Shown: piece by piece, positions 45,754 to 64,000 of the stretch
Layout of the letters: every line of letters starts with the position of its first letter
Position numbering within the stretch: position 1 is the stretch's first letter
Assembly: GCA_963701295.1 (NCBI GenBank)
Contig: OY969585.1
Coordinates: 64,001-128,000, forward strand
DNA: 64,000 nt
Source: Ignavibacteriota bacterium
Lineage (GTDB): Bacteria; Bacteroidota; Ignavibacteria; UBA10030
Direction of reading: 5' to 3'
Position numbers and translations under genes: made by a program
Notes under the pieces: model-generated
What the model saw: only the letters and a program-made list of their open reading frames with translations
Databases searched by the model: none
Told to the model about the DNA's origin: nothing

Positions 45754-46616
45754 TGAGCCCGGATAAATTTATGAATGTCCAAGTAGAACAAAAGATTGCT
45801 TTCAGTATTCTCTTCTTCTGCACATTGCTGGTCATTCTACCGGTTCTGGTGATTCTTTTTATTATATTCGCCAGAGGAATCAGTGCCATAGATATTTCGT
45901 TTCTTACCGAGATGCCGACGAACGGAATGACTGCCGGTGGTATTTTGCCTGCAATTCTTGGCACACTCTATCTTGTGCTTGGAGCAATTCTCTTTGCTGT
46001 ACCGTTGGGAGTTCTCTCCGCAATTTATCTTGTTGAGTATTCGCGTGAAAACATATTAAGCCGTATTGTGAAACTCGCGATTGTCAATCTTGCCGGAGTT
46101 CCATCGGTGGTCTATGGTCTCTTCGGATTAGGCATCTTTGTTTTGTTCTTAGGATTTGGCGCATCGATTCTTTCCGGTTCGCTGACTTTAGGAATTATGA
46201 TTTTGCCGGTGATCATTACTGCATCTCGTGAAGCGTTGGAGAGTGTTCCAAAATCATTTCGCATTGTCAGTCTATCACTCGGTGCGAGTAAATGGCAAAC
46301 GATTCGACATTCTGTGCTGCCGCATGCACTCCCGGGCATTCTCACCGGGACCATTCTCGGCCTCGGCCGAGCTGCGGGTGAGACAGCTCCCATCTTGTTT
46401 ACTGTTGCAGCGTTCTATCTTCCAAAACTGCCGACCTCGTTATTCGACCAAACAATGGCGCTGCCGTATCATCTGTATGTTATTTCCACACAGGTTCCGG
46501 GTATTCCGGAAAACGTTCGTTACGGAACTGCCCTTGTTCTCCTTTTACTGGTATTACTTTTAAATCTCACTGCCATTATTCTGCGATACCAATTCAGAAA
46601 GCGCAAAAAATGGTAG
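45753..46616 (+). CDS. pstA: Phosphate ABC transporter permease
   Basis: [38 protein letters not shown]. Confidence 0.94.
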   Translation: MSPDKFMNVQVEQKIAFSILFFCTLLVILPVLVILFIIFARGISAIDISFLTEMPTNGMTAGGILPAILGTLYLVLGAILFAVPLGVLSAIYLVEYSRENILSRIVKLAIVNLAGVPSVVYGLFGLGIFVLFLGFGASILSGSLTLGIMILPVIITASREALESVPKSFRIVSLSLGASKWQTIRHSVLPHALPGILTGTILGLGRAAGETAPILFTVAAFYLPKLPTSLFDQTMALPYHLYVISTQVPGIPENVRYGTALVLLLLVLLLNLTAIILRYQFRKRKKW

Positions 46617-47372
46617 AGACCGAGAGAGTAAAAATTTCTATCCGCGATTTTTCTATTCACTTTGGTGATGTCACAGCACTCAAAGGGTTAAATCTTGATA
46701 TTTATAAAAATGAAATATTTACGATCATCGGTCCGGCGAACTCAGGAAAATCATCATTACTGCAATCATTAAATCGCTTGAATGATCTCACTCCGTCATA
46801 TAAAAGAACCGGCACGATTCTTATTGATGACCAAGAGATAGACTCTGTCGATGTGGAATCACTTCGCAAAAGAGTCAGCATCGTGTTTGCATTGCCCTTT
46901 CCACTTCCAATATCCATCTTTGATAATATTGCCTACGGACCGCGTATGCACGGCGTTAAAAACAAATTGAGGCTTGCCGAGATCATTGAAAAGGGATTGC
47001 GTGAAGCATATCTTTGGGATGAGGTAAAAGATCGGCTCGATTTGCCTGCGATGAACCTTTCTGGCGGTCAGCAGCAGCGATTATGTATTGCGCGCATATT
47101 AGCAGTTGAGCCGGAAATTATTATGTTCGACGAACCAACATCTGGTCTCGATCCGATTTCTACAGCACGTGTCGAAGAAACCCTACGAGTACCTGAAAGA
47201 ACGTTACACGATTATTCTTGTAACAAACAATGTTGCTCAGGCAGCTCGTGTAGGTGATAGAACAGCATTTCTCTTGATGGGAGAGCTGATTGAATTAAAT
47301 GAAACAAAACGCCTATTCACAATGGCGCAGGATAAACGCACCGATGATTATCTTACCGGGAAATTCGGATGA
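46610..47372 (+). pseudogene. pstB: Phosphate ABC ATPase PstB, +1 frameshift near 47192
   Basis: [27 protein letters not shown]; removing one C in GTACCTGAAA restores ...[13 protein letters not shown]...TGKFG (253 aa). Confidence 0.85.
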
Positions 47373-48132
47373 GTACAGATAAACCAATCATCGAAGCGCG
47401 TCATCTCAATTTATTCTACGGGAAATTCCAGGCACTTATCGATATAGGCCTCGTGATCGAACAACAGCACATTACCGCTTTGATCGGGCCTTCGGGATGC
47501 GGCAAATCGACACTTGTGCGTGTATTCAATCGAATGAATGATTTGATTGAAGGAGTTCGGGTCAACGGAGAGGTAACGGTTCAGGGTGACAATATTTTTG
47601 CTCCGGAAACCGATCTCATAGCGCTGCGAAGAAAAGTCGGCATGGTATTCCAGCGGCCAAACCCATTTCCGTTATCTGTTCGAGATAATCTTACATTCGG
47701 CCTTGAGATTCATCGCGAGCACTCAAAAAAGAACCACTCTGGTATCATCGAGCAATCATTAAAAGACGTATCCTTTGGGATGATTTGAAAGATCGCCTCG
47801 ATCAATCTGCGCTGCGCCTTTCTCTGGAACAACAGCAGCGCTTGTGTATTGCGCGTGTCTTGGCAATGAAACCGCAAATCATTCTTATGGATGAGCCATG
47901 TTCAACGCTCGATCCCATTGCAACATTGAAGATTGAAGAACTGATGCAAGAATTAAAAAAGGATTATACAATCGTCATAGTCACACACAACATGCAGCAA
48001 GCCGCGCGCGCCAGTGATTACACCGCATTTCTTTATATCGGCAAATTGATAGAGTTTGGAGAAACAAAACGCATCTTTTCTGCCCCGGAAGAAAAACAAA
48101 CGGAAGATTATATTACAGGAAGATTTGGATAA
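47369..48132 (+). pseudogene. pstB: Phosphate ABC ATPase PstB, -1 frameshift near 47771-47779
   Basis: [18 protein letters not shown] then [10 protein letters not shown]...TGRFG in another frame; adding one base restores LWDDLKDRL (254 aa). Confidence 0.85.
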
Positions 48133-48896: not shown

Positions 48897-51722
48897 CTAA
48901 ATCTCATTCTTCGGCGGATTATTCTTCTCTTGCATCTTCGCCATAAGTTGCGGATACAATTTTTGCGCACACTCTGGACAAACGCCATGACTAAATGTAG
49001 CTTCCGAGTGCTCATTGATGTACTCTTCCAACTGGTTCCAGTATCCTTTATCATCACGTATTTTCTTACAGCTTGCACAAATTAGAATAAGGCCATTCAA
49101 CACTTTGATTTTGGCTAAAGCTTCATCAACACTTTTTATTAGTTCTTCTTTACGCTTGAGGAGTTGTCTTACACGCAGACGATACACACCAAAACCGGCT
49201 CCAATAAAAGCAACGATCACTAATCCATAGAACCATATTGTTTTCCAAAAAGGAGGAGTGATGATAATTCGAATAGAAGTTCCCTTATCATTCCATACGC
49301 CTTGATTATTAGAAGCTTTGACACGAAATGTGTATGTCCCTCCCGACAAATTCGTATATGTTACGAAACGCCTATCCGCATCCGTATAATTCCATTCTTT
49401 CTCAAATCCTTCCATCATATATGCATAGGAATTTCCCTTTGGTGAAACATAATGAAGGCCTGCAAATTCAAAAGAAAAAACATTCTCTTTATAGGAAAGA
49501 TGAACCTCGTCGCACTCTGAGATGGAACGTTGAAGAATTGTGCGTCCGTCAATTCCCTTACCTATTGGAACAGGTTTATTAAAGATTTGAAAATCGGTGA
49601 TCACAACTGATGGGCGAGATGTATCAACACGGATACTGTCTGGGTGAAAAATATTGAAACCATTCGTGCCGCCAAAAATCATCTCTCCGCTTTTAAGCTT
49701 ACAACAGGCATTTGTTGCAAACTCATTGCTTTGAAGTCCATTACTCTGATAGTAATTCTTAAATTTAATTGTGCGAGGATCAAGTTTAGATAATCCATGA
49801 TTGGTGCCGATCCAGAGATTGCCATGATCATCTTCAAGTATTCCTTGTACACTGTTGTCTGGTAACCCGTCACTTTCGAAATACTGATGGAAAGTTTCGG
49901 TATTTTGATCAAATTTATTGAGACCGTTTGATGTGCCTAACCAAATTGCACCGATGCGATCTTCATGGAGACATATAACTTTATCATCGCTTATACTGTT
50001 GGAATCTCGACTATCAGACCGATAATGGAAGAATATTCCTTTTTCAGGATCAAAACGTTCCACCCCCTTGAACAGGGTTCCAATCCAAAAACTACCCGAA
50101 GAAACCTCACACAATGTCCAAACACAATTGTCGCTTATACTCTTCGAGTCATTTTGATCGTGAACATATCGAGTAAATTCTCCCTTTTCATAATCGAATC
50201 GATTTATGCCGCCGCCAAAGGTTCCTACCCACAAATTTCCTACTCGGTCCTCGCAAATTCTCCATATAAAATTATTACTTAAACTATGAGGATTATTGTT
50301 ATCCAATTGATAATGGATGAATTTCCCTTTCTTCCGATCAAAATAATCCAAACCATTATCTGTGCCGATCCATAATTTATTGTATCTATCTTCGTATATA
50401 CTTCGAACCACATCATTGCTCAGACTATTAGAATTGTTCGGAATATGAATATAGTGCGTAAATTGATTTTTCCCCCGGTCTAAACAATCTAAACCTCCTC
50501 CATCAGTTCCTATCCAAATCATTCCCTGGCGATCTTCGTAAACAGCATGGACCGTATTCTTACACAAGCTGTTTACATCATTGGGATGATTTCTATAAAG
50601 TTTGAATTGTCTTTTACCCATATTATATTTATTGATTCCATTATAACTCGTTCCTACCCATAGTATGCCCAACTTATCTTCAAAGATTGAAAGCACCGAA
50701 TTACCGCTAAGGCTTGCAGGATCTTGAGGATTGTTTCGATAATGAACAAATTTATCATTGATCCCAACTTTTGAACCAGCAACAAATTTATCAAGTCCTC
50801 CACCATCGGTACCGATCCAGAGATTTCCGTCATGATCTTCGATAATAGATCTGACAATATTGTGACTTAAACTATTAGGTTTGTTCGGATTGTTCTGATA
50901 ATGGACAAATTGCTTCTTTTGAGGATCAAACCGATTCAATCCACCGCCCCATGTCCCTACCCACAGATTCCCTACATGGTCTTCGCAGATTCTCGATGAG
51001 CCATTTATACTGTGAGGATTATCAGGATCATTTTGATAGCAGGTGAATTCTCCTTTCTTTCGGTCAAAATAATTCAATCCGTCATCAGTGCCAACCCAAA
51101 GACGTCCGTGCCTATCCTCAAGAATCGATAATACATTATTCTGTCTCAGACTTTTGGGGTTACTCGGATTACATTTGTAATGTATAAATTTTTCTTTTTT
51201 CCTGTCAAACTGATCGAGACCTCCTCCTTGTGTACCTATCCAAAGTGTTCCCGACCGATCTTCGTAAATAGATCGAACAAAGTTAGTACTTAAGCTATTC
51301 GGATCATTCAGATTATTTTTGTAATGAATAAATTTTTCTTCTTCTCTATCAAAGCGATTAAGTCCATCTTCCGTTCCAACCCAAAACGTACCCAAGTGAT
51401 CCTCTATAATAGATTCAACACTATTATTGCTCAGGCTAAACGGGTTTTTAGGATCGTTTTTATATACCTTAAAAGTATATCCATCATAACGATTGAGACC
51501 TGCATAAGTACCAAACCATAAAAAACCCTTGCTGTCTTGACAGATGCTTAATATCGAACTCTGGGATAGCCCGGATTCAGTCGATATCCTTTCAAATTGA
51601 ATTTCATCCGTCTGAGAATAGGATCGGGGGGCAAAGAATATTATTGTAATGTTCAATGCAATAGCCAGTCTATATATTGCATTTTTCATTTTCATTCTTT
51701 CTATAGTGAAAATGAATATCAA
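48897..51722 (-). CDS. Membrane sensor: Reg_prop beta-propellers + Y_Y_Y + TM + Cys-rich C-terminal domain
   Basis: Repeated ED..G.LWIGT.GGL blades, YTNL..GTYTFRVKASN, PPFWKT TM, tail CASC...SHGVCPEC; start likely ~51695. Confidence 0.9.
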   Translation of the reverse strand: MIFIFTIERMKMKNAIYRLAIALNITIIFFAPRSYSQTDEIQFERISTESGLSQSSILSICQDSKGFLWFGTYAGLNRYDGYTFKVYKNDPKNPFSLSNNSVESIIEDHLGTFWVGTEDGLNRFDREEEKFIHYKNNLNDPNSLSTNFVRSIYEDRSGTLWIGTQGGGLDQFDRKKEKFIHYKCNPSNPKSLRQNNVLSILEDRHGRLWVGTDDGLNYFDRKKGEFTCYQNDPDNPHSINGSSRICEDHVGNLWVGTWGGGLNRFDPQKKQFVHYQNNPNKPNSLSHNIVRSIIEDHDGNLWIGTDGGGLDKFVAGSKVGINDKFVHYRNNPQDPASLSGNSVLSIFEDKLGILWVGTSYNGINKYNMGKRQFKLYRNHPNDVNSLCKNTVHAVYEDRQGMIWIGTDGGGLDCLDRGKNQFTHYIHIPNNSNSLSNDVVRSIYEDRYNKLWIGTDNGLDYFDRKKGKFIHYQLDNNNPHSLSNNFIWRICEDRVGNLWVGTFGGGINRFDYEKGEFTRYVHDQNDSKSISDNCVWTLCEVSSGSFWIGTLFKGVERFDPEKGIFFHYRSDSRDSNSISDDKVICLHEDRIGAIWLGTSNGLNKFDQNTETFHQYFESDGLPDNSVQGILEDDHGNLWIGTNHGLSKLDPRTIKFKNYYQSNGLQSNEFATNACCKLKSGEMIFGGTNGFNIFHPDSIRVDTSRPSVVITDFQIFNKPVPIGKGIDGRTILQRSISECDEVHLSYKENVFSFEFAGLHYVSPKGNSYAYMMEGFEKEWNYTDADRRFVTYTNLSGGTYTFRVKASNNQGVWNDKGTSIRIIITPPFWKTIWFYGLVIVAFIGAGFGVYRLRVRQLLKRKEELIKSVDEALAKIKVLNGLILICASCKKIRDDKGYWNQLEEYINEHSEATFSHGVCPECAQKLYPQLMAKMQEKNNPPKNEI

Positions 51723-51804
51723 GAACAGAAAAAGAAAATAAATAGTGAAGAGAGGTTTTGGCTTATAATCATCGAAAATACTTCCTCCTTCATATTATAA
51801 CACC

Positions 51805-54800
51805 CTATTTTTTCTTCATATAGTCTGGATAGAGTTTTGCCGCACAGTCCGGACAAATGCTATGACTAAACTTGGCATCTGATCGATCTTGGATATACGA
51901 TTCGATTTGCGTCCAATATCCTTGATCATCACGGATCTTCTTGCAATTCGCACAAATCGGTACCAGCCCACTTAACAACTTTACATCAGCAAGGGCATCT
52001 TGAAGCTCGGTGATAAGACGTTCGCGTTCGACTTCTGCCTTTTTGCGTTCAGTGATGTCACGGCCAATACCAACCAGGCCATTAGTTTGACCTTTTTCAT
52101 CTCGTAATGGAAGCTTTGAAGTGACCAGCCAATGTTTTTGACCCTGTTCATCAATTACATATTCTTCTCTGTTGATCACCGGCTGACCGGTTTGAATCAC
52201 TGTTCGGTCGTCAGCAATAAAACCTTCTGCTAATTCCTTCGGAAATAAATCGAAGTCGTCCTTTCCGAGTACGTCCGCTTCCAATTTAAGACCCATATTG
52301 TGGATATCTGCCAGGTTAGCGATAGTTTTTCGGCATTGAATATCTTTCACATAAATTGCATCCGGGATATTATCAATTAATGTTCGAAGAAGGTTGCGCT
52401 CTTTTGTAAGGGCTGCTTCCATTCGTTTTTGTGCTGCAAGATCTCTGGCTTGCGCTCGCCACCTGTAAATCCAAAAGATAATGCCTGTTATAACGACAAA
52501 CAGTATAAATCTGAACCAAAGAGTATGCCAGAATGGGGGTGTGATGAAGATTTTCAGCGAGACACCTTTTTCATTCCAAACCCCATCGTTATTGCTTGCT
52601 TTTATCCTGAAAGTGTATTCGCCCGGGTTTAAATTCGTATATGTCGCTATTCGGTTATGAGCACTTGTAGTATGCCATCGATCATCGAATCCTTTCAATG
52701 TGTAGGTATATTTGTTTTTTTCAGGATTTGTAAAATCTAATGCAGTAAACTCGATAGAAAAAAAGTCCGCTTTATGAGACAAGATTATTGTGTCAGTTTC
52801 AGTGATTGATTTTTTAAAAATAATGTTGCCGTCAATCTCCTGTCCAACAGTTATCGAATTGTTGTAAATCTTAAAATCTGATAATACTATCTGAGGGGGA
52901 ATACTATTGGTTGTTAAACTCTTTGGATCGAAAATATTAAACCCATTCGGCCCTCCAAATAACAACTTTCCATCTGTTGATTGGCAGTTGGCGTTAGAGA
53001 AAGCATAATCTTGCAGCCCATCGGTATAATCATAGGTATGGAAGGATTTAGTTTTTGGATTAAATTTTAAAATCCCGTTTGTTGTGCTTACCCATAAATT
53101 GTAATCATTATCTTCCAATATTGCTTTAATACTCATATCCGGCAATCCGTCTTTATCAGAGAAAGCAGTAAACTCATTTGTTTTCATATCTAGTTTATTC
53201 AGGCCCCAACCATCACTGCCAAACCACATATTGCCTTCATGATCTTCGAAAATACAAAATATATTATCATTACTGAGACTATTATGATCATTCATGTGTC
53301 TGTAATGATTAAATTTTATTTTGGGAAAAGATTTGTTGAAATCATAATCGTTTAATTTTACCATTTCCAGTCCTGAGGAAGTAGCAATCCAAATATAATG
53401 GCGGCTGTCTTCAAATATAGTGGTTGTATATTTTTCGACAAAACTATCAGGATCGTTTGGGTCATTTTTATAATGATAAAACCGGTTTGTTTTCCGGTCA
53501 TATAAATCCAATGTTCCATTCAGCCCTGCTGCCCACAGATTATGTTTGCTATCTTCCAATAAAGCCCAAACATTATTATCGATTAGACTATACTTATTGT
53601 TCGGATCATGTATAAATCGAATAAATTTATTCTCTTTTCTTTTATAACAATTGATGCCATGAGCATACGTGCCAACCCAGACGTTATCTTCAAAATCTTT
53701 AGCAAGGCAAACAACAGCGTTGCCGCTAATAGAATTTGGGTTACCGGGATTATTAAGAAAATGTTTGAACTTATTAGTTTTTTTATCCCAGAAATTCAAA
53801 CCGCCGCCATCCGTTCCAATCCAATATTTTTCATCTTTATCTTCAATAATTGAGGTTACAGATTTATTGCTCAAGCTGTTTTTATCAGAAGGATTAGGAG
53901 TGTGTAATCCGAAATTCGTTTTCTCCTCCTCATCCATATTCAAACCTGCATTAGAAGTGGCTACCCAAATTATTCCAGACCTGTCTTCAAAAGTTAGATT
54001 GATTCCATCGCTGCTAAGTGAGTTTGGGTTTGTTGTTTCATATTTACAATAATCAAATAACTCTGTCTTTTTATTATAAAGTGAAATACCGCCGCCATCG
54101 GTACTAATCCAAAAAATTCCGTCTTTATCCTGCCTGATGTGGTTTATAATGTTAGCAGATACTGAATTTTTCTTCGGTACGTTTATATATTGTTTGAAAA
54201 CATTATGATTTTTATCCCACGAAATTAAACCCGCACCGGACGAACCAAACCAATATAAACCGTCAGTATCTTCCAAAAACATAGACATCCTGCTTGCTTG
54301 TTTTTCTATATTGGGAATTAAGATTGGATAATGTTCATAATTACCAGTTTGTGGATTGAATCTATCAATTATTTTATTGCTCGCGCTAATCCAGATATTG
54401 GAATGTTTATCTTCATAAGCGCCATAAATTACATTTCCACTAATACTATTCGGATTATCATTGTTGTGTTCATATCGTTTAAAAACAGATTTTGCTTTAC
54501 TAAAATCGGTACCATCATTGACCGGTAATGTCCAGATGCCTTCCGAAAATGTACCTAACCATAGAACTCCTTTTGAATCACAGAAAATACTAGTGAAGTG
54601 GTTGCCGTTCTCATTCGCATAAATAGATTTGAACCTTTCTTTCTTTTTATCGAACATAGTAAGCCCGGTGGAGAAATAATCCAAATCCTGTCATTATTAT
54701 CTTCAGCGAAAAATTGTATTCCGTTTGAAATCGTAGCAGGATCACTTTCTACAGGTTTATATGCTTTAAATTGATAACCGTCATAACGAAATAATCCATT

Positions 54801-54992
54801 CCATGTTCCTATCCATAAAAAACCATGTTTATCCTGCGAAATTGCATTGATATAATTATTTGTAAGTCCCTGTTCCTTAGAAAATTTCTTAAACTCTATA
54901 TTTCTATTTTGTCCGAAACCATTATTCAAAGTAATGATAAGAATAATGAAAATGCTAAGGACTTTAATAATCCGAAAAGATTTCATGCTCAT
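51805..54992 (-). pseudogene. Membrane sensor: propellers + Y_Y_Y + TM + PAS + Cys-rich domain; frameshift near 54667-54676
   Basis: ORF 54555..54992 supplies signal peptide and first blades, 51805..54684 the rest; one missing base joins WIIS.TGLTMFD. Confidence 0.82.
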
Positions 54993-55165
54993 CCTTCATG
55001 GATGATACTAGGTATGAAGTTCTTCGCTATTCTTCTCAATTTATTCCTGCTGCTCGATGAAAAGATTGTTTGCCTTTTTCAGATCTTCACTCCACGAGCA
55101 AAGTTCTTTGCCACTAATATATATATAGCAACAATAAATCAATTTTTGCTCTAAGGCAACATCCC

Positions 55166-55330
55166 CTATGAATCTTCCTTTTGTGTAAAATCCGGATACA
55201 GTTTCTTCATACAATCAGGACAGATACCATGGGTGAAACGAGCCTGTGATCGCTCTTGAATATACGCTTCAACTTGAGTCCAGTATCCTTTATCATCACG
55301 AATCTGTTTACAATTTGCACAGATAGGAAA
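55166..55330 (-). pseudogene. Isolated Cys-rich C-terminal domain (gene remnant or stand-alone module)
   Basis: PICANCKQIRDDKGYW...FTHGICPDCMKKLYP closely matches the tail of 59667..62300; upstream ORF residues are non-homologous. Confidence 0.65.
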
Positions 55331-55418
55331 ATGAGAATATCCTATCACTTGTTTCAATCCATTGAAATACGCGTTGTGAAGCACCATGCGGAAGAGAAAC
55401 ACTAGCATTTCTGATATA

Positions 55419-58400
55419 CTATTTTTTCTTCATATAGTCTGGATAGAGTTTTGCCGCACAGTCCGGACAAATGCTATGACTAAACTTGGCATCTGATCGA
55501 TCCTGGATATACGATTCGATTTGCGTCCAATACCCTTGGTCATCACGGATCTTCTTGCAATTCGCACAAATCGGTACCAATCCACTTAACAACTTTACAT
55601 CAGCAAGTGCATCTTGAAGCTGTGCGATGAGCTTCTCACGCTCAGCTTCAGCTTTTTTTTGTTCAGTGATGTCATGGCTAACACCAACCAGACCGATAGT
55701 TTGACCTTTTTCATCTCGTAATGGAAGCTTTGAAGTGACCAACCAACGTTTCTGACCCTGTTTATCAATTACATATTCTTCTCTGTTGATCACCGGCTGT
55801 CCGGTTTGTATCACTGTTTGGTCGTCAGCAACAAAGCCTTCTGCTAGTTCTTTCGAAAATAATTCAAAGTCGTCTTTCCCTAAAGCTTCAGCCTCTGATT
55901 GCAGACCCATGTTGTGCACATCGGCTAAGTTGGCGACGGTCTTGCGGGAGGCTGTGTCTTTTACATAAATTGCATCAGGAATATTATCAATGAGTGTCCG
56001 AAGAAGGTTGCGCTCGCGTTGCAATGACTCCTGCGCCCTCATAAGGTCGCTGATTTCGCGCGAGATCCCCACGAGCCCCACGATTTGACCACTGTCATCG
56101 CGCATCGGGACTTTTGTGGTCCAAGTCCAAATGGTCTGTCCGTCCTCCAATTGCCTGCTCTCAATGAGGCCTATGATCGGTTCGCCTGATTCCATCATTC
56201 GCTGTTCAATTTCTATTGACTTTCGGCCATGCTCCTCGCCCCACAGGTCTATATCGGTCTTTCCGACGATCTGACTCATATCGTCCACATTCAGGTCTCG
56301 CATTTCTTTACGGTTCATTCTAATATGACGGCACTGCCGGTCTTTAAAGTAAATACTATCCGGGATGTTATCCATCAGTGCATCTAAAAGTGATTTTTCA
56401 TGTTTTAGTGCTTCCTCAATATGCTTTTGTTCTGTAATTTCTCGACCGACACCCACAAGACCAGTAATCTGACCCTGTTCATCCCGCAAGGGCAGCTTGG
56501 AGGTAAGCAACCAATGTCCTTTGCCCTCTTTGTCAATAAGAAATTCCTCCTTATTGAGCACCGGTTGACCAGTTTGGATAACCGATTGATCATCGGCACA
56601 GAAAGCTGCCGCTATATCTGACGGATAGATATCGTAATCATTCTTTCCCAACACTTCAGCTTCTGATTGTGCACCCATATTGCGAACATCCGCTGCATTA
56701 GCGACGGTCTTGCAACATTTAGTGTCTTTCACATATACCGCATCCGGTAGATTATCGATCAATGTCCGAATAAGATTGCGCTCTTGAGTAAGGGCTGCAT
56801 CCATCCGTTTTTCTGCTGATAGGTCTCTTGCTTGCATACGCCACTTGTAGATCCAGAAAGCAATACTCCCAAGAACAATGAGGAGAAGTCCATAGAACCA
56901 AAATGTTTTCCAAAAAGGAGGAGTGATAATGATGCGAATAGAAGTTCCCTGATCATTCCATCTGCCTTGATTATTGGAAGCTTTGACACGAAATGTGTAC
57001 GTCCCTCCCGGCAAATTCGTGTACGTCACGAAACGCCTGTTTGCGTCCGTGTAATTCCATTCTTTATCAAATCCTTCCATCATATATGCATAGAGATTAC
57101 CCTTTGGTGAAGCATAATGAAGGCCTGCAAATTCAAAAGAAAAAACATTCTCTTTATAGGAAAGATGAATTTCATTACAGTCTGATATGGATTTTGCAAG
57201 AATTGTGCGTCCTTCTGCATTCTCACCTATAGCGACAGGCTTATTAAAGATTTGAAAATCGGTAACCACTACCCTTGGAAGGGATGGATCATCTATAATA
57301 CTGTCCGGATTAAAAATATTGAAACCATGGACTCCGCCAAAGATCATCTCACCGCTCCGGCTTCTAAAGCAGGCATTCGCACTAAATTCATTGCCTTGCA
57401 GTCCATAATTTTCAAAATAGCTTTTAAAGTTACCGGTACTGGGATTATATTTTGATAAACCATGATTGGTACTGATCCAGAGATTGCCATGATCGTCTTC
57501 CAGTATTCCGTGTATGCTGTTGTTTGGTAATCCATCGCTTTCGTTATATCGATGAAAAGTTCCGGCATTTCGATCAAATTTATTGAGACCGTTCGATGTG
57601 CCTACCCAGAAAGCTCCTGCGCGACCTTCATAGAGACAAATGACTTTATTATCGCTTATGGTGTTGGAATCCCGATTATCAGACTGATAATGAAAGAATA
57701 TTCCTTTTTCAGTATCAAAACGGTACAAGCCTCCTGTAAGGGTTCCAATCCAAAAAATATCGGAAGAATCTTCATGCATTGTCCAAATAAAACTGTCGCT
57801 TATACTCTTTGGGTCATTTTGATCATAATTATAACGAGTAAATTCACCCTTTGCATAATCGAATCGATTCAATCCTCCGCCAAAGGTTCCTACCCACAGA
57901 TTCCCTGCCCGGTCTTCGTAGATGCTCCATGCACTATTATTACTTATACTGTGAGGATTATTGGGATCATTTCGATAGCGGATGAATTTCCCTTCCTGTC
58001 TGTCAAAATAATTTAACCCATCATCTGTACCAATCCATAACCTATTGTGCCGATCTTCATAGACACTTCTGATCGTGTTATTACTCACACTGTAAGGATT
58101 CTGCGGATTATACACATAGTGCGTAAATCGATTTTTTTTTCGGTCTAAACGATCTAAACCTCCACCACCGGTTCCTATCCAGATCATTTCCTGGCTATCC
58201 TCGCAAATGGCATGGACCGTATTCTTAGACAAGCTGTTTATATCATTGGGACGATTTCTGTAAAGCACGAAATGTTTTTTGCCCGGATTATATTTATTGA
58301 TACCATTGAAATTTGTTCCTACCCACAGGATGCCCAACTGATCTTCAAATATTGAAAGCACCGAATTACCGCTCAGACTCGTAAGATCTTGAGGATCGTT

Positions 58401-59366
58401 TCGATAATGAATAAACAGATCATTGCCTCCAACTTTAGAACCAGCTACAAATTTATCGAGTCCCCCACCATCGGTACCTATCCAGAGATTTCCATTATGA
58501 TCTTCGTGAATGGATCTGACAATATTTTGATTTAAACTAGTAGGATCGTTCGGATTGTTCCGATAATGGACAAACCGATTCTTCTGAGGATCAAACCGAT
58601 TCAATCCGCCGCCCCATGTCCCTACCCACAGGTTCCCTGAGCGGTCTTCATAGATTCTCCATATACCAGTAGGACTGATACTGTGAGGATTTTGAGGATC
58701 ATTTACATAACGCGTGAATTCTTTTGTTTCCCTGTTAAAATAATTCAATCCGTAATCGGTGCCAATCCAAAGACGTCCATGCCTATCCTCGAGAATCGAT
58801 AATACATTATTCTGGCTCAGACTTTTGGAATTACTCGGATCATTTATGTAACGGATAAATTTTTCTTCTTTTCTGTCAAACTGATTGAGCCCTCCCCCCT
58901 GGGTGCCTACCCAAAGGGTTCCCGACCGGTCTTCATAAATAGATCGGACATAATTATTACTCAGACTGCCCGGATCATTCGGATTGTTTGTGTAGTGAGT
59001 AAACCGTTCTTTTTCCCGATCAAACCGATTGAGACCACCTTCCGTTCCAATCCAAAGTGTACCCAAATGATCTTCAATAATAGCCTCAACATTGTTTTTG
59101 CTCAGGCTAAATGGATTCTCAGGATCGTTTTTATATACCTTAAAAGTATACCCATCATACCGATTAAGACCTTCATAAGTCCCAAACCATAAAAACCCCT
59201 TGCTGTCTTGACAGATGCACAATACCGAACTCTGAGATAACCCTGATTCAATGGATATCCTTTCGAATTGAATCTCGTTCATTTGAGAATGGGATGGGGA
59301 AATCAGAAAAATAGCGGTTATGCCCCATAAGACAAACACCTTCGATAAATTAGTTTTCATATTCAC
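55419..59366 (-). CDS. Membrane sensor: propellers + Y_Y_Y + TM + 3 PAS + Cys-rich domain
   Basis: Same blade repeats; three LIDN.PD..Y.KD...GK.D...KLPLRD PAS/PAC units; tail CANC...SHSICPDC. Confidence 0.92.
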   Translation of the reverse strand: MNMKTNLSKVFVLWGITAIFLISPSHSQMNEIQFERISIESGLSQSSVLCICQDSKGFLWFGTYEGLNRYDGYTFKVYKNDPENPFSLSKNNVEAIIEDHLGTLWIGTEGGLNRFDREKERFTHYTNNPNDPGSLSNNYVRSIYEDRSGTLWVGTQGGGLNQFDRKEEKFIRYINDPSNSKSLSQNNVLSILEDRHGRLWIGTDYGLNYFNRETKEFTRYVNDPQNPHSISPTGIWRIYEDRSGNLWVGTWGGGLNRFDPQKNRFVHYRNNPNDPTSLNQNIVRSIHEDHNGNLWIGTDGGGLDKFVAGSKVGGNDLFIHYRNDPQDLTSLSGNSVLSIFEDQLGILWVGTNFNGINKYNPGKKHFVLYRNRPNDINSLSKNTVHAICEDSQEMIWIGTGGGGLDRLDRKKNRFTHYVYNPQNPYSVSNNTIRSVYEDRHNRLWIGTDDGLNYFDRQEGKFIRYRNDPNNPHSISNNSAWSIYEDRAGNLWVGTFGGGLNRFDYAKGEFTRYNYDQNDPKSISDSFIWTMHEDSSDIFWIGTLTGGLYRFDTEKGIFFHYQSDNRDSNTISDNKVICLYEGRAGAFWVGTSNGLNKFDRNAGTFHRYNESDGLPNNSIHGILEDDHGNLWISTNHGLSKYNPSTGNFKSYFENYGLQGNEFSANACFRSRSGEMIFGGVHGFNIFNPDSIIDDPSLPRVVVTDFQIFNKPVAIGENAEGRTILAKSISDCNEIHLSYKENVFSFEFAGLHYASPKGNLYAYMMEGFDKEWNYTDANRRFVTYTNLPGGTYTFRVKASNNQGRWNDQGTSIRIIITPPFWKTFWFYGLLLIVLGSIAFWIYKWRMQARDLSAEKRMDAALTQERNLIRTLIDNLPDAVYVKDTKCCKTVANAADVRNMGAQSEAEVLGKNDYDIYPSDIAAAFCADDQSVIQTGQPVLNKEEFLIDKEGKGHWLLTSKLPLRDEQGQITGLVGVGREITEQKHIEEALKHEKSLLDALMDNIPDSIYFKDRQCRHIRMNRKEMRDLNVDDMSQIVGKTDIDLWGEEHGRKSIEIEQRMMESGEPIIGLIESRQLEDGQTIWTWTTKVPMRDDSGQIVGLVGISREISDLMRAQESLQRERNLLRTLIDNIPDAIYVKDTASRKTVANLADVHNMGLQSEAEALGKDDFELFSKELAEGFVADDQTVIQTGQPVINREEYVIDKQGQKRWLVTSKLPLRDEKGQTIGLVGVSHDITEQKKAEAEREKLIAQLQDALADVKLLSGLVPICANCKKIRDDQGYWTQIESYIQDRSDAKFSHSICPDCAAKLYPDYMKKK
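56029..56768. repeat. Near-identical direct repeat, copy 1 (two PAS domains); copy 2 at 60664-61403
   Basis: Sequences align at constant offset 4635 with very few mismatches over about the first 590 bp. Confidence 0.9.
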
Positions 59367-59666
59367 TCTTTCGCTTATGATTGCGAGTATGACAGTTCCT
59401 CATATTTCATTCATTACTAAGATTGTAAAATAAGAATATCCGATCAATAGTTCCGATTTATTTAAATATGCATTATGAAGTATTCTAAAGACAAGCCTGT
59501 CTGATGTACTATTCTTTCATGTCAAAGACCGGATAAAGCTTTGCTGCACAATTTCCTATTCTACATTCCATGATCCTAATCTTACCGAAAAATCATTTGC
59601 CATCTTCGCTATTTAAGATGTTCACGGATTTCCGTTTTGCAATTTCATTTTCAAAGATAGTATTCT

Positions 59667-62300
59667 CTACTCATCTTCTTTTTGTAAAAATTCCGGATAC
59701 AGTTTCTTCATACAATCAGGGCAGATACCGTGACTAAAGCGAGCATGCGACCGTTCTTGGATATAGGATTCTACTTGCATCCAGAATCCTTTGTCATCAC
59801 GTATTTGTTTGCAATTTGCACAGATAGGAACAAGTCCGCTCAGTGTTTTGACTTCAGAAAGAGCAGCTTGAAGTTTTTTGATAAGTTGTTCACGTTCTTC
59901 TTCGATTCGCTTCCGTTCAGTGATATCGCGATCAATGCCAATGGTCATTATCTTTCCCTGCATCTTAAAGGGAACCGCAGTGTATTCAATGACATTATCC
60001 TTTCCATCTGGCCGGATCCAGCTATATGATCCGCCAAACACAACATCATGGACGTTGGATTCATGATGGTCATCACTGAGCGATTTTGCAATGTCCATAG
60101 TAGTTCCAATTTGCAGCAATTCTTCTCGACTCCGCCCAGCCATCTCAGCATAGCGTTTATTGCAATCGATGAGCCTTCGATGTTTTCGATTAGAAGTTTC
60201 CTCAAAAACACTGAGACCATCGTATGCATTTTCAAAAACAAATCGAAATTTATCTGCAGTTTCCCGAAGTGTTTCTTCCATTCGTTTGCGCTCAGTGATG
60301 TCACGGTCAATACCAACAGTTCCAATGACTTTGCCTTCGACATCCCGAAGAGGGACTTTGGTCGTCGAAACCCATCTCTCTTTTTCTTCTTTGCTTGCGT
60401 CTACTGCAGGACCTTCGTAATCATATAACCCCTTACCTGATTGAATAATCTCCTGCTCATATGCATAGTATTGCAATGCCAAATCATGCGGAAAAAGGTC
60501 AAAATCCGTTTTCCCGATAAGTTTGTCCTCAGATGAAAATCCGAATTTATGCACCACAGCAATATTGCCTACGATATAACGGCCTTTGGTATCCTTTATA
60601 TAGATGTAATCTGGCAAGTTATCAATTAATGTACGAAGAAGAGTGCGTTCACGTTCGCGCTCTTCCTGCGCCCTCATAAGGTCGCTGATTTCGCGCGAGA
60701 TCCCCACGAGCCCCACGATTTGACCACTGTCATCGCGCATCGGGACTTTTGTGGTCCAAGTCCAAATGGTCTGTCCGTCCTCCAATTGCCTGCTCTCAAT
60801 GAGGCCTATGATCGGTTCGCCTGATTCCATCATTCGCTGTTCAATTTCTATTGACTTTCGGCCATGCTCCTCGCCCCACAGGTCTATATCGGTCTTTCCG
60901 ACGATCTGACTCATATCGTCCACATTCAGGTCTCGCATTTCTTTACGGTTCATTCTAATATGACGGCACTGCCGGTCTTTAAAGTAAATACTATCCGGGA
61001 TGTTATCCATCAGTGCATCTAAAAGTGATTTTTCATGTTTTAGTGCTTCCTCGATATGCTTTTGTTCTGTAATTTCTCGACCGACACCCACAAGACCAGT
61101 AATCTGACCCTGTTCATCCCGCAAGGGCAGCTTGGAGGTAAGCAACCAATGTCCTTTGCCCTCTTTGTCAATAAGAAATTCCTCCTTATTGAGCACCGGT
61201 TGACCAGTTTGGATAACCGATTGATCATCGGCATAGAAAGCTGCCGCTATATCTGCCGGATAGAAATCGTAATCATTCTTTCCCAAGACTTCTGCCTCTG
61301 ATTGTCCGCCCATATTATGAACATCTGCTAAATTAGCGACGGTCTTGCAACATTTAGTGTCTTTCACATATACCGCATCCGGTAGATTATCAATCAATGT
61401 CCGGAGAATATTACGTTCATGCTGAAAAGTCTCTTCTGTTTGTTTGCGTTCGGTGATATCACGAATTGTGAATATATGTAATTCCTTACCGCCCATTCGA
61501 GTGATTCTTCCACGAATCTCTGCAGGAAATGTTGTGTCATTTTTCCGCAGACCAAGAATTTCATAAGATTCTCTTATGTCCAATTGAATCGCCCCATTGA
61601 CGTGAGCACGTAATTCGGGTACGACTATATCGAGGAGTGATTTTCCAATGAGTTCACTCCTCTTATATTCATACATATGTGCAAGTTGATCGTTCATATC
61701 GACAATAATACCATTTTCCGTTAGTGCGATACCTTCAAAGGAAGCCTCAGCAAGCGTCCTGAATCTGTGCTCACTTTCATGCACCGCTTGTTCTATTTGT
61801 TTCTGTGCCTCTTCAGCTTTTTTACGAGAAGTGATATCCTTCACTGCCGAAATAACTGTTGGTTTTCCCTTCAACTCAAATAAATGATTACTCACCTCGA
61901 CCGGAATTCTATGACCATTTTTTGCAAGATGTATCCCTTCCCAGATTGTATATTTCTGTGTCATAAGTTTTTTCATCATCACTTCAACGTGGGGAATGGT
62001 CTCGGGGGCATGAATGTCGTATGGACCTTTTTTAAGAAGTTCCTCCCGGGTATATCCTAATTGTTTGCAGGCAACTCCATTCACTTCGAGAAACTTAGAA
62101 GGCACTCCCTCTTGATTGTGATATTCATAGACAAATATTTCATCATTAACGCTATTGAAAAGAAGATTGTATAACTCAGTAAAAGGCAGCAATACTGTTT
62201 TTGCCCTCTTGTTTGATGCAGCCCCATTTTTTTTTATGCGCTTGCGCAATCGAGCAACTTCGTTAAGAAGTTGAGCCTTTGTTTTAATCATGTGTTTCAT
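59667..62300 (-). CDS. Cytoplasmic multi-PAS (about 6) sensor + Cys-rich C-terminal domain
   Basis: No TM; serial PAS/PAC units ending DITERK; tail CANC...SHGICPDC; GGAG RBS. Confidence 0.9.
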   Translation of the reverse strand: MKHMIKTKAQLLNEVARLRKRIKKNGAASNKRAKTVLLPFTELYNLLFNSVNDEIFVYEYHNQEGVPSKFLEVNGVACKQLGYTREELLKKGPYDIHAPETIPHVEVMMKKLMTQKYTIWEGIHLAKNGHRIPVEVSNHLFELKGKPTVISAVKDITSRKKAEEAQKQIEQAVHESEHRFRTLAEASFEGIALTENGIIVDMNDQLAHMYEYKRSELIGKSLLDIVVPELRAHVNGAIQLDIRESYEILGLRKNDTTFPAEIRGRITRMGGKELHIFTIRDITERKQTEETFQHERNILRTLIDNLPDAVYVKDTKCCKTVANLADVHNMGGQSEAEVLGKNDYDFYPADIAAAFYADDQSVIQTGQPVLNKEEFLIDKEGKGHWLLTSKLPLRDEQGQITGLVGVGREITEQKHIEEALKHEKSLLDALMDNIPDSIYFKDRQCRHIRMNRKEMRDLNVDDMSQIVGKTDIDLWGEEHGRKSIEIEQRMMESGEPIIGLIESRQLEDGQTIWTWTTKVPMRDDSGQIVGLVGISREISDLMRAQEERERERTLLRTLIDNLPDYIYIKDTKGRYIVGNIAVVHKFGFSSEDKLIGKTDFDLFPHDLALQYYAYEQEIIQSGKGLYDYEGPAVDASKEEKERWVSTTKVPLRDVEGKVIGTVGIDRDITERKRMEETLRETADKFRFVFENAYDGLSVFEETSNRKHRRLIDCNKRYAEMAGRSREELLQIGTTMDIAKSLSDDHHESNVHDVVFGGSYSWIRPDGKDNVIEYTAVPFKMQGKIMTIGIDRDITERKRIEEEREQLIKKLQAALSEVKTLSGLVPICANCKQIRDDKGFWMQVESYIQERSHARFSHGICPDCMKKLYPEFLQKEDE
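60664..61403. repeat. Near-identical direct repeat, copy 2
   Basis: Matches 56029-56768. Confidence 0.9.
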
Positions 62301-62978
62301 AATGTAACTCCAACAAAACCTATAATACTCATATCTTATACCAGCTTATTCTGTTTCTCAATACTGCAAGCAATGAATAAAATAAAGAGAAGAAGCACTA
62401 TAGAATTAGGCTTCATAAAAGTATCACCAAGATTATATATGAATAAATAATCGCGAAACTGTAGTGAGAAGAATTCTATTAAGAAATAACTCATATTCCA
62501 TCTCTCCTACGGTGATAACAGTCACAGGAACGTAGGTATGGCATTTCTGCATACTATGTGGGAATATCAGAGATGATGAATGAGACAGCATCAGAATGAA
62601 TATTCGCATGTGCCCACGATGCAATGCTTACATCTGTTCCCCTTTTTCACCGAGATGTACGTTATGGCATTCAACAATAAAATCTTATAAAGAATCACCA
62701 AGACATCATCTGGTGGTAATTTTCGGCAAGATTCTTATCGTCAATGCCGGATGCGCGCTACCACTATTATTTGTACAAATTTACTTTATATCCTCTTCAA
62801 AATCAAAAAATGTTAAAATAGAAAGTAAGGATAAAAAGCAACGAGATCTTCTTGCTCGGCCACGAGAAGTTGCTGTTGCAGTGCATTGATGAGGCCTTTA
62901 CATGTTTATCTAAAATAACTCATGCTATTCAAACATCTTTATATCGCCCTGCCAGGGCTTTGTTTTTTTCTGGTTTAT

Positions 62979-63635
62979 CTACAAAACTGTTTTATATTCG
63001 ATTGCGAATTTAAGGAGGGAATGACTTCCGTGGATTTCAAGCTTGTTGCAGATGTTGGTTCGATGATTCTCGACGGTCCGATAACTGATATGTAAATCAT
63101 CTCCGATTTCTTTACTCGTTTTGTTTCCCGAGATGAGGCGTAGTACTTTGCGTTCGGTGGGTGTGAGGTTCTCCAACTGAGGTTTCTTCTTGAGCAGTGA
63201 ACGGACGTAATCACTTCTGCTGACGAGGTATTCTGAAATAGACGGACTAAGGTAGTACCGTCCAGTTGCAACAGTCTTAATAGCGGCGACGATATCACTT
63301 ACTGCGCTATCCTTCAACACATACCCTTTCACTCCAAGATCCATCGCTTCGTTGAACATATCTTCTTCTTTGTACATCGTTAAAAGGACAATGTGAGACG
63401 GGAGATGTCGTTTGATGATTTCCCCTGCGACCTGAAGGCCAGTTAATCCCGGCATTTCAATATCTAGCACGATAACATCCGGCTTGAGTTTTTCTGTAAG
63501 ATACAGTGCTTGTTGTCCGTCCCCCGCTTCACCGATGATTTCTATGGAACGTTCTGATCCAATTGCTAAGAGCAGGCCTTTGCGAAATATCGGATGATCA
63601 TCTGCAATGATGATTCGTAATTTAGTTTTCGCCAT
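62979..63635 (-). CDS. NarL/LuxR-family response regulator
   Basis: IADDHP, VLDIEMP, LLT, YVLK; HTH LTPTERKVL...TVENHRTNICNKL. Confidence 0.95.
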   Translation of the reverse strand: MAKTKLRIIIADDHPIFRKGLLLAIGSERSIEIIGEAGDGQQALYLTEKLKPDVIVLDIEMPGLTGLQVAGEIIKRHLPSHIVLLTMYKEEDMFNEAMDLGVKGYVLKDSAVSDIVAAIKTVATGRYYLSPSISEYLVSRSDYVRSLLKKKPQLENLTPTERKVLRLISGNKTSKEIGDDLHISYRTVENHRTNICNKLEIHGSHSLLKFAIEYKTVL

Positions 63636-63999
63636 CTATTCTATCGTACGTTTTTATTGTTATTAATACTCTGGTTCCTTTTCCAAGGTTCGATTCAATT
63701 CTCATCGTTCCTCCAATAAACCGAGTACGTTCTGCAATTCCCTGCAAACCTATCCCGCGTTCATTTTGAGTTCGCTGCAGTGAAACATTAAATCCGGTAC
63801 CGTTATCTTCTACGTCAATATTCAGCCGATTATACCATCGCTTGATGGTAACTTTTCCGGCAGTTGCATTCGCATGTTTGATGATATTGTTGACGCATTC
63901 CTGTATAATTCTATAGACATGAATTTCCATTTCTTTTGGAATAAGATTATCAATGGGATCGATATCTGATGTAAAGGAAATCGTCGTCGTCTGCGCTGC
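63622..63999 (-). CDS. NarX-type sensor histidine kinase, C-terminal HATPase part (truncated by window end)
   Basis: YRIIQECVNNIIKHA, EDNGTGF, GIGLQGIAER, GKGTRV; frame stays open to window edge. Confidence 0.92.
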   Translation of the reverse strand, partial: AAQTTTISFTSDIDPIDNLIPKEMEIHVYRIIQECVNNIIKHANATAGKVTIKRWYNRLNIDVEDNGTGFNVSLQRTQNERGIGLQGIAERTRFIGGTMRIESNLGKGTRVLITIKTYDRIDGEN

Positions 64000-64000
64000 T

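Follow-up and report, generated by a model that had tools for sequence, protein, structure and literature searches.

What does a sensor protein signal with when none of the usual output domains is attached to it? This question is raised by an array of genes at positions 48897–62300 of a 64,000-nucleotide stretch (hereafter, the window) from the genome of an Ignavibacteriota bacterium (contig OY969585.1, positions 64,001–128,000). Bacterial outputs are usually explained as kinases, cyclases, phosphodiesterases, DNA binding or chemotaxis. The array consists of four long open reading frames (ORFs) and one short ORF, all on the minus strand. The original prediction, made from the sequence of the window, held that four large sensors and one isolated copy share a C-terminal tail with two CxxC pairs, placed where such an output would normally be. 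The translations and a regular-expression search agree, with exactly one C-x2-C-x29-C-x2-C motif per ORF in all five. The features of the array are as follows (TM, transmembrane; aa, amino acids):

48897–51722, minus strand: P0001, with signal or anchor, Reg_prop propeller, Y_Y_Y, TM helix, short helix and Cys4 tail, without PAS
48951–49100, minus strand: tail module of P0001 (aa 875–924; Cys motif at 48969–49079)
51805–54992, minus strand: P0002 with its detached 5' part; propeller, Y_Y_Y, TM, one PAS and tail; frameshifted
51826–51975, minus strand: tail module of P0002 (aa 904–953)
55166–55408, minus strand: orphan P0006, an 80-aa ORF with a full tail module at 55193–55342, without a preceding helix
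55419–59366, minus strand: P0003, with propeller, Y_Y_Y, TM, three PAS and tail; mosaic gene
55440–55589, minus strand: tail module of P0003 (aa 1260–1309)
59667–62300, minus strand: P0004, soluble, with six PAS domains and tail
59694–59843, minus strand: tail module of P0004 (aa 820–869)

The architectures claimed earlier were recovered with Pfam. P0001 contains 10 Reg_prop stretches and Y_Y_Y with zero PAS, the main ORF of P0002 (51805–54684) contains Reg_prop, Y_Y_Y and one PAS, and P0003 contains 11 Reg_prop stretches, Y_Y_Y and three PAS; P0004 is the soluble protein with six PAS. A TM helix follows Y_Y_Y in P0001 (a hydrophobic segment at 49182–49241), in P0002 (readable in the translation) and in P0003 (56847–56906). 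The Cys motif lies at aa 882–918 of 941 in P0001, 911–947 of 959 in P0002, 1267–1303 of 1315 in P0003, 827–863 of 877 in P0004 and 30–66 of 80 in orphan P0006. Neither Pfam nor NCBIfam gave a match to HisKA, HisKA_3, HATPase_c, GGDEF, PP2C or a helix-turn-helix (HTH) family in P0001–P0004 (E≤0.01), as the claim of missing outputs had implied.

Apart from the tail, these proteins contain no candidate output; on homologous scaffolds it takes the place of a kinase, and it also ends response regulators with a REC domain. As to how it works, we tentatively favor, at somewhat less than an even chance, a metal-locked and helix-coupled protein-contact output aimed at one shared target. The replacement can be seen in a paralogue of 1345 aa with the architecture propeller-Y_Y_Y-TM-PAS-PAS-HisKA-HATPase, which shares 49.8% identity with P0001 across 926 aligned columns. 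Tail and kinase thus share one slot on homologous sensors, just as the original prediction had placed the tail. Among the six Y_Y_Y proteins encoded in the genome, a kinase forms the end of two and the tail that of the other four.

The genome, a single contig of 3.64 Mb, carries 11 copies of the tail, five of them in the window. The six copies elsewhere comprise a PAS + tail protein of 217 aa, a 167-aa unassigned protein with a tail, two REC + tail regulators, a propeller-Y_Y_Y + tail protein of 866 aa, and a PAS-PAS-GAF + tail protein encoded between two hybrid kinases. One of the REC + tail regulators belongs to an HK-REC-REC+tail operon (HK, histidine kinase). Among related genomes, 33 of 41 (this genome counted) carry the tail, including all 15 other genomes of the genus, with 6–13 copies each. 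G040, a genome from a different family of this order, has 19 copies, and its segment G040:C1:893506-911447 encodes six consecutive tail-bearing sensors of ∼1060–1220 aa.

The tail module has ∼50 residues and the consensus L-x-G-L-x-P-I-C-x2-C-K-K-I-R-D-D-x-G-Y-W-x-Q-I-E-x-Y-I...F-S-H-G-I-C-P-D/E-C-x2-K-L-Y-P. The alignment of the five window tails has 27 invariant columns, and the segments K-K-I-R-D-D-x-G-Y-W, E-x-Y and F-S-H-G-I-C-P are identical in all five. Across 303 distinct tails, R8, D9, D10, G12, W14, E18, Y20 and H31 are 93–100% conserved, and the polar set R8, D9, D10, W14, E18, Y20 and H31 is kept in 9 of the 11 paralogues of this genome. The net charge of the same 303 tails averages 0.00 and ranges from −5 to +4. 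As judged from the Cys motif only, the four cysteines most likely coordinate a single metal ion, probably zinc.

In the four sensors, the tail is C-terminal and directly follows a long helix; orphan P0006 is excepted. The fold was predicted with AlphaFold2 from the last 85 residues of P0003 and 57 aligned sequences. The best model (predicted local distance difference test, pLDDT, 88.3) consists of a helix at residues 3–26 followed by β-(CxxC)α-α-β-(CxxC)α; the other four models have pLDDT values of 68.8–76.6. The original prediction had put a coiled coil in front of every copy. The helix is predicted as claimed, while the coiled coil itself is suggested by heptad spacing read by eye, and the claim fails for the orphan, which has no helix in front of its tail.

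The tail also proved to be selected, contrary to a degenerate remnant, one outcome that the original prediction had named as fatal to its reading. The tails of P0002 and P0003 differ by 6 synonymous and 0 nonsynonymous changes over 63 codons; the PAS in front of them has an omega of 0.135, and other tail pairs have omega values of 0.05–0.21. The module is under strong purifying selection.

Searches for a known family left the tail uncharacterized, in agreement with the earlier claim: Pfam, NCBIfam, PDB sequence and fold searches matched no characterized family. For the tail regions (last ∼60 residues), nothing scored above the Pfam cut-off even when searching at E≤10; zf-C4pol, DZR_2, Zn_Ribbon_YjdM, Zn_ribbon_HMPTM and DUF3039 all remained below their curated cut-offs, the best reaching 18.6 against 27 bits. 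Foldseek against the PDB with the tail model returned no row at E≤0.001. VIA-align against 48,161 chains gave a best Z of 3.0, with no Fur or Zur chain among its rows, and only "hypothetical protein" clusters, none of them usable as a named cluster, were found in the ESM Atlas. PF23545 gave a weak signal in 2 of 124 proteins that was not reproduced in six two-copy proteins, and a literature search on its name returned nothing relevant. No description of the tail module was found in the literature searched, which did not cover subscription journals. By sequence, the tail defines a very large, unnamed family.

The cysteines themselves might point to a different role, in which the tail is not an output at all but a metal or redox cap (a thiolate switch, a rubredoxin-like Fe(Cys)4 site or a Fur-like zinc dimerization clamp), and the PAS domains do the signaling. 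The spacing C-x2-C-x29-C-x2-C, including C-P-x-C as the second pair, is that of rubredoxin. The best PDB sequence-profile match is to the second CxxC of PerR (4i7h), which is weak (E of 0.055 over 19 residues), and Fur/Zur chains occupy Foldseek ranks 2, 4, 9 and 14, again weakly (E of 2.3–4.1). Most carriers in 80 named loci belong to largely anaerobic lineages (for example, Desulfobacterota, anammox Planctomycetes, Ignavibacteria, Spirochaetota and Anaerolineae), and natural proteins with two tails in tandem would suit a clamp. However, the rubredoxin profile PF00301 finds none of the 11 tails (0 matches genome-wide with 41 candidates scored, and unlisted at E≤10), and the Fur-type matches are not significant. 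A clamp also needs no near-invariant exposed polar residues, and the smallest family members, described below, would be left without any output. We consider such a cap unlikely.

To place the tail in a wider context, a family profile was built from the five window tails and compared with 1.84 billion protein cluster representatives. It matched 23,303 representatives at E≤1e-3, 18,773 at E≤1e-10 and 353 at E≤1e-30. A word-indexed search confirmed 965 of 970 candidates, whose source names are only "PAS domain S-box protein", "response regulator" or "hypothetical". Of 265 relatives retrieved, 263 contain the motif, and 257 of these terminate no more than 30 residues past it. The spacer is exactly 29 in all 298 instances in these 263 relatives although the regular expression permitted 25–33, which places the pattern far beyond chance.

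A scan of named genomes confirmed 583 of the 600 stretches listed, which is a lower bound. Carriers among these matches are Desulfobacterota (most), Ignavibacteriae, Spirochaetota, anammox Planctomycetes, Acidobacteria, Verrucomicrobia, Chloroflexi, Nitrospirota, Gemmatimonas, Calditrichota and Chromatiaceae, with tail identities to the query of 62–84%, save for one Ignavibacteriae genome at 97%. Cultured carriers include Geothrix rubra, Desulfoferrobacter suflitae and a Desulfurivibrio strain.

A survey of architectures and of neighboring genes had been proposed together with the original prediction. The first found only input modules in front of the tail, which is nearly always C-terminal. 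In 124 representatives, the partners include PAS_9 (63), MASE6 (13), REC (8), GAF_2 (7), HAMP (5), propeller/Y_Y_Y (3) and PocR (2). In 85 ORFs selected by regular expression from 80 species-level genomes, four of which are ferredoxin false positives, they include PAS (29), REC (6), Reg_prop (4), Tll0287-like (4), and MASE3, Cache and TPR (3 each). No kinase, cyclase/GGDEF or DNA-binding family is among the top 25 families listed for either set, beyond which lie 8 rarer families in the set of 124 and 49 in the set of 85. Minimal members consist of a small membrane module or a REC domain followed by the tail, with nothing else that could serve as output, and in many members the tail lies ∼30 residues from the membrane. 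Tandem forms also occur, namely two repeats of membrane module + tail, two repeats of REC + tail, and REC + tail + tail (P0137, P0128, P0131, P0138, P0127 and P0008); these could be covalent versions of a tail dimer. The second survey, of gene neighborhoods within three positions on either side at 80 loci, found no conserved partner gene. The largest neighbor cluster consists of other PAS/GGDEF-type proteins at 19 of the 80 loci, and the next cluster covers 5.

These data also bear on whether the tail is a zinc finger for nucleic acids, which would make the proteins one-component, partly membrane-anchored regulators of transcription or RNA. Cys4 fingers often bind nucleic acids, the tail has a K-K-x-R patch after the first CxxC, and the lack of a conserved partner gene is compatible with this role. 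HalOD2, a predicted zinc-finger output, is proposed to bind DNA or RNA in haloarchaeal regulators (PMC5847659). Sequence-specific DNA binding nevertheless fits poorly, because the tail is not basic, many tails being acidic, and because its polar residues are the same across paralogues and phyla. If these residues conferred specificity, all sensors would bind one site. The position of many tails close to the membrane is a further difficulty, and DNA-binding families give no sequence or fold match. A nucleic-acid binder is, in our judgment, improbable.

The near-invariant K, R, D, D, W, E, Y and H could alternatively line a ligand pocket, the tail binding or making a small molecule such as a nucleotide second messenger; the convergence of many sensors on one output recalls GGDEF. 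However, a domain of 50 residues built around a metal site offers little space for an active site or a nucleotide pocket, and no similarity to enzyme or nucleotide-binding families was found. Such a function is highly improbable.

A protein-contact output would accommodate these observations in the following manner. The tail would be an independent, selected mini-domain that serves as the output of kinase-less sensors and of REC response regulators. It would be joined without a flexible linker to the long helix leaving the last PAS, TM or REC module, so that the two tails of a sensor dimer would lie next to each other and would change their mutual orientation when a signal shifts the helices. 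Through contact with the tail, many different sensors would converge on one conserved cellular target. What suggests a shared protein target is the near-invariance of the polar residues, together with a module that is not basic and the lack of any conserved neighbor gene. The absence of a conserved neighbor over 80 loci implies that the target, if dedicated, would be encoded elsewhere, and the distance of ∼30 residues to the membrane, seen in many members, makes a membrane-associated or freely diffusing target probable. The concrete candidate target in this genus would be a sensor-less HisKA_3 kinase and a NarL regulator.

The genes for this candidate pair adjoin the array, as had been claimed, and stand at its head:

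62979–63635, minus strand: NarL/LuxR-type response regulator (REC + GerE), overlapping the kinase gene by 14 nucleotides
63622–64000, minus strand: 3' part of the sensor-less kinase (286 aa: one TM + HisKA_3 + HATPase_c)

The kinase gene reaches 482 nucleotides past the window end (genome positions 127622–128482). The encoded protein has one TM helix, HisKA_3 and HATPase_c without a sensor, and its N-terminus retains the P-P-I-W-x-T junction found after Y_Y_Y in sensors with the tail. Judged by neighborhood, it looks like a sensor kinase without its sensor beside sensors without their kinase, and the kinase and NarL regulator are thus a candidate local target of the tails. Short orthologues, with 65–91% identity and open frames of 254–337 aa, are present in 8 congeners; in 7 of these 8, as well as in this genome, tail genes lie 3–4 kb downstream on the same strand. 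In other genera, homologues match from residue ∼25 with 37–51% identity and mostly reside in frames of 980–1135 aa, which by length would correspond to full propeller sensor kinases.

In its local form, docking of the array tails on this kinase would let several sensors drive one kinase/NarL pair, as a split, many-to-one two-component system. The Y_Y_Y-type junction on the kinase TM helix and the long frames of its homologues in other genera speak for this arrangement, as do the order and strand of kinase, regulator and array, which are kept in 8 of the 9 genomes holding the short kinase. In addition, the P0001 tail and the kinase H-box both lie ∼35 residues below the membrane. Neighborhood alone is weak evidence, however, and there are exceptions: G005, G011 and G015 have arrays without a kinase match at E≤1e-40, and in G002 the short kinase lies apart from the tails listed for that genome. 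The family at large lacks such a neighbor, and contact might equally run through the TM helices. We give docking on this kinase a small probability.

The three congeners with arrays but no kinase match also count against the protein-contact output in general, and several other points do so too. A similar kinase is near a tail in only 1 of 80 cross-phylum loci, which makes the link genus-specific, and no counterpart of the short kinase or the regulator lies within 7–8 kb of the six-gene array of G040, which has 19 tails in all. REC + tail regulators are already downstream of a kinase, such that a kinase fits poorly as a general target. The missing conserved neighbor is equally expected of a self-sufficient DNA- or ligand-binding domain. 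The charged conserved residues might form internal salt bridges instead of an interface, and just one of the five AlphaFold2 models is confident. A still more specific version combines a new, metal-locked docking class of output, which takes dozens of unrelated sensors and response regulators in each genome to one conserved target, with an array that addresses one stripped HisKA_3 kinase here and whose genes are reshuffled by recombination in conserved tail and PAS sequences; we regard this combination as quite unlikely as a whole.

The array genes are recombination mosaics, a feature new with this locus. A DNA self-comparison relates the sensor part of P0003 to P0001 (82% over 2.4 kb), its first two PAS to the third and fourth PAS of P0004 (94.6% over 834 nucleotides), and its last PAS and tail to P0002 (86.8% over 597 nucleotides). 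The orphan P0006, which starts 10 nucleotides past the P0003 stop, resembles the P0004 tail (84% DNA identity over 158 nucleotides). Most simply, recombination would have placed a PAS-tail segment of P0002 type ahead of an older tail of P0004 type, which remained as the orphan. The orphan has kept all invariant residues, with an omega of 0.08 against P0004. In one congener (L087:12884-13297), the orphan and a hydrophobic leader of 27 residues are kept after the orthologous sensor gene, the distal half of the copy having been converted to P0002/P0003-type sequence; it is absent from two other congeners. The orphan has not decayed and reads as a recombination scar that a congener also keeps.

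Several reading frames in the region are broken. In P0002, a frameshift near 54645–54665 detaches the first 145 codons (ORF 54555–54992). It sits in a C/G run, the orthologue of a congener is unbroken (1068 aa), and in public run X1 a contig of depth 12.9 carries an additional C behind 54663 that would restore the frame. Its cause is a homopolymer error in the assembly or else a lesion specific to this strain. Two pstB-like ABC ATPase genes of a pstSCAB-phoU operon (46610–47257 and 47369–48132) also look frameshifted, the first ending in an aberrant Cys-rich tail and the second being split at 47785–47788. Three frameshifts in 8 kb suggest indel errors of the assembly. Elsewhere in the genome, a Y_Y_Y sensor kinase at 2817268–2818330, whose HATPase_c match is spread across frames of 1011 and 387 aa, is a probable further case. 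Public sequencing runs cover at most a 0.15 share of the stretch, with contigs that derive from relatives. Contigs of metatranscriptome run X13 match parts of P0003 with 90–99% likeness, which is no proof of transcription here. The gap of 678 nucleotides between the NarL gene and P0004 contains a 97-aa Cys-rich ORF on the plus strand (62596–62889) without a Pfam match; it is probably non-coding because its congener match exists only as three shifted pieces.

We rate the tail as a new output module that fits the modular logic already known for bacterial signaling. It stands in output position in ∼23,000 protein clusters from many phyla, with 6–19 copies in single genomes, and has neither a database model nor a structure, which at present leaves entire branches of sensory networks unreadable in sediment and anaerobic bacteria. 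The present locus provides a tractable entry point, with a genus-conserved cluster, a candidate partner pair, natural domain-swap variants and a free-standing copy. If docking on the kinase were true, it would represent a modular many-sensors-to-one-kinase two-component system with recombining sensor genes. The locus itself adds three features: mosaic genes formed by recombination, a conserved orphan tail and, at the array head, a truncated kinase.

The known systems that resemble the tail do so in part. Like the HisKA/DHp and GGDEF outputs, it directly follows the helix leaving the last PAS, TM or REC, and it is found on both sensors and REC regulators. It differs from them in having ∼50 residues, four cysteines, no catalytic motif and no family match. 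The dimerization domain of the Fur family (PerR, Zur and Fur) has a structural Cys4 zinc site made of two CxxC pairs, each after a strand, and the tail shows a local likeness to it in hydrophobic-C-x2-C and G-I-C-P-D-C. However, the spacer is ∼36 residues in PerR (4i7h_A) compared to 29 in the tail, the E-values are non-significant, and the tail has no DNA-binding domain in front and is fused to sensors. From rubredoxin it differs in being predicted helical between the Cys pairs and in leaving the family profile unmatched.

HalOD2 is a predicted zinc-finger output of a few haloarchaeal response regulators, known from sequence only (PMC5847659). Compared by description, both modules are small, C-terminal, carry two CxxC pairs and occur on REC proteins. 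The HalOD2 spacer is 20–25 residues in a few halobacteria, whereas that of the tail is 29 in tens of thousands of bacterial proteins. The closest relatives of the sensors as a whole are the propeller/Y_Y_Y sensor kinases and hybrid two-component systems of the Bacteroidota type. P0001–P0003 retain the periplasmic Reg_prop, the Y_Y_Y and the TM junction of these proteins without HisKA, HATPase_c, REC or AraC, and the kinase module survives here only as the separate 286-aa gene at the head of the array.

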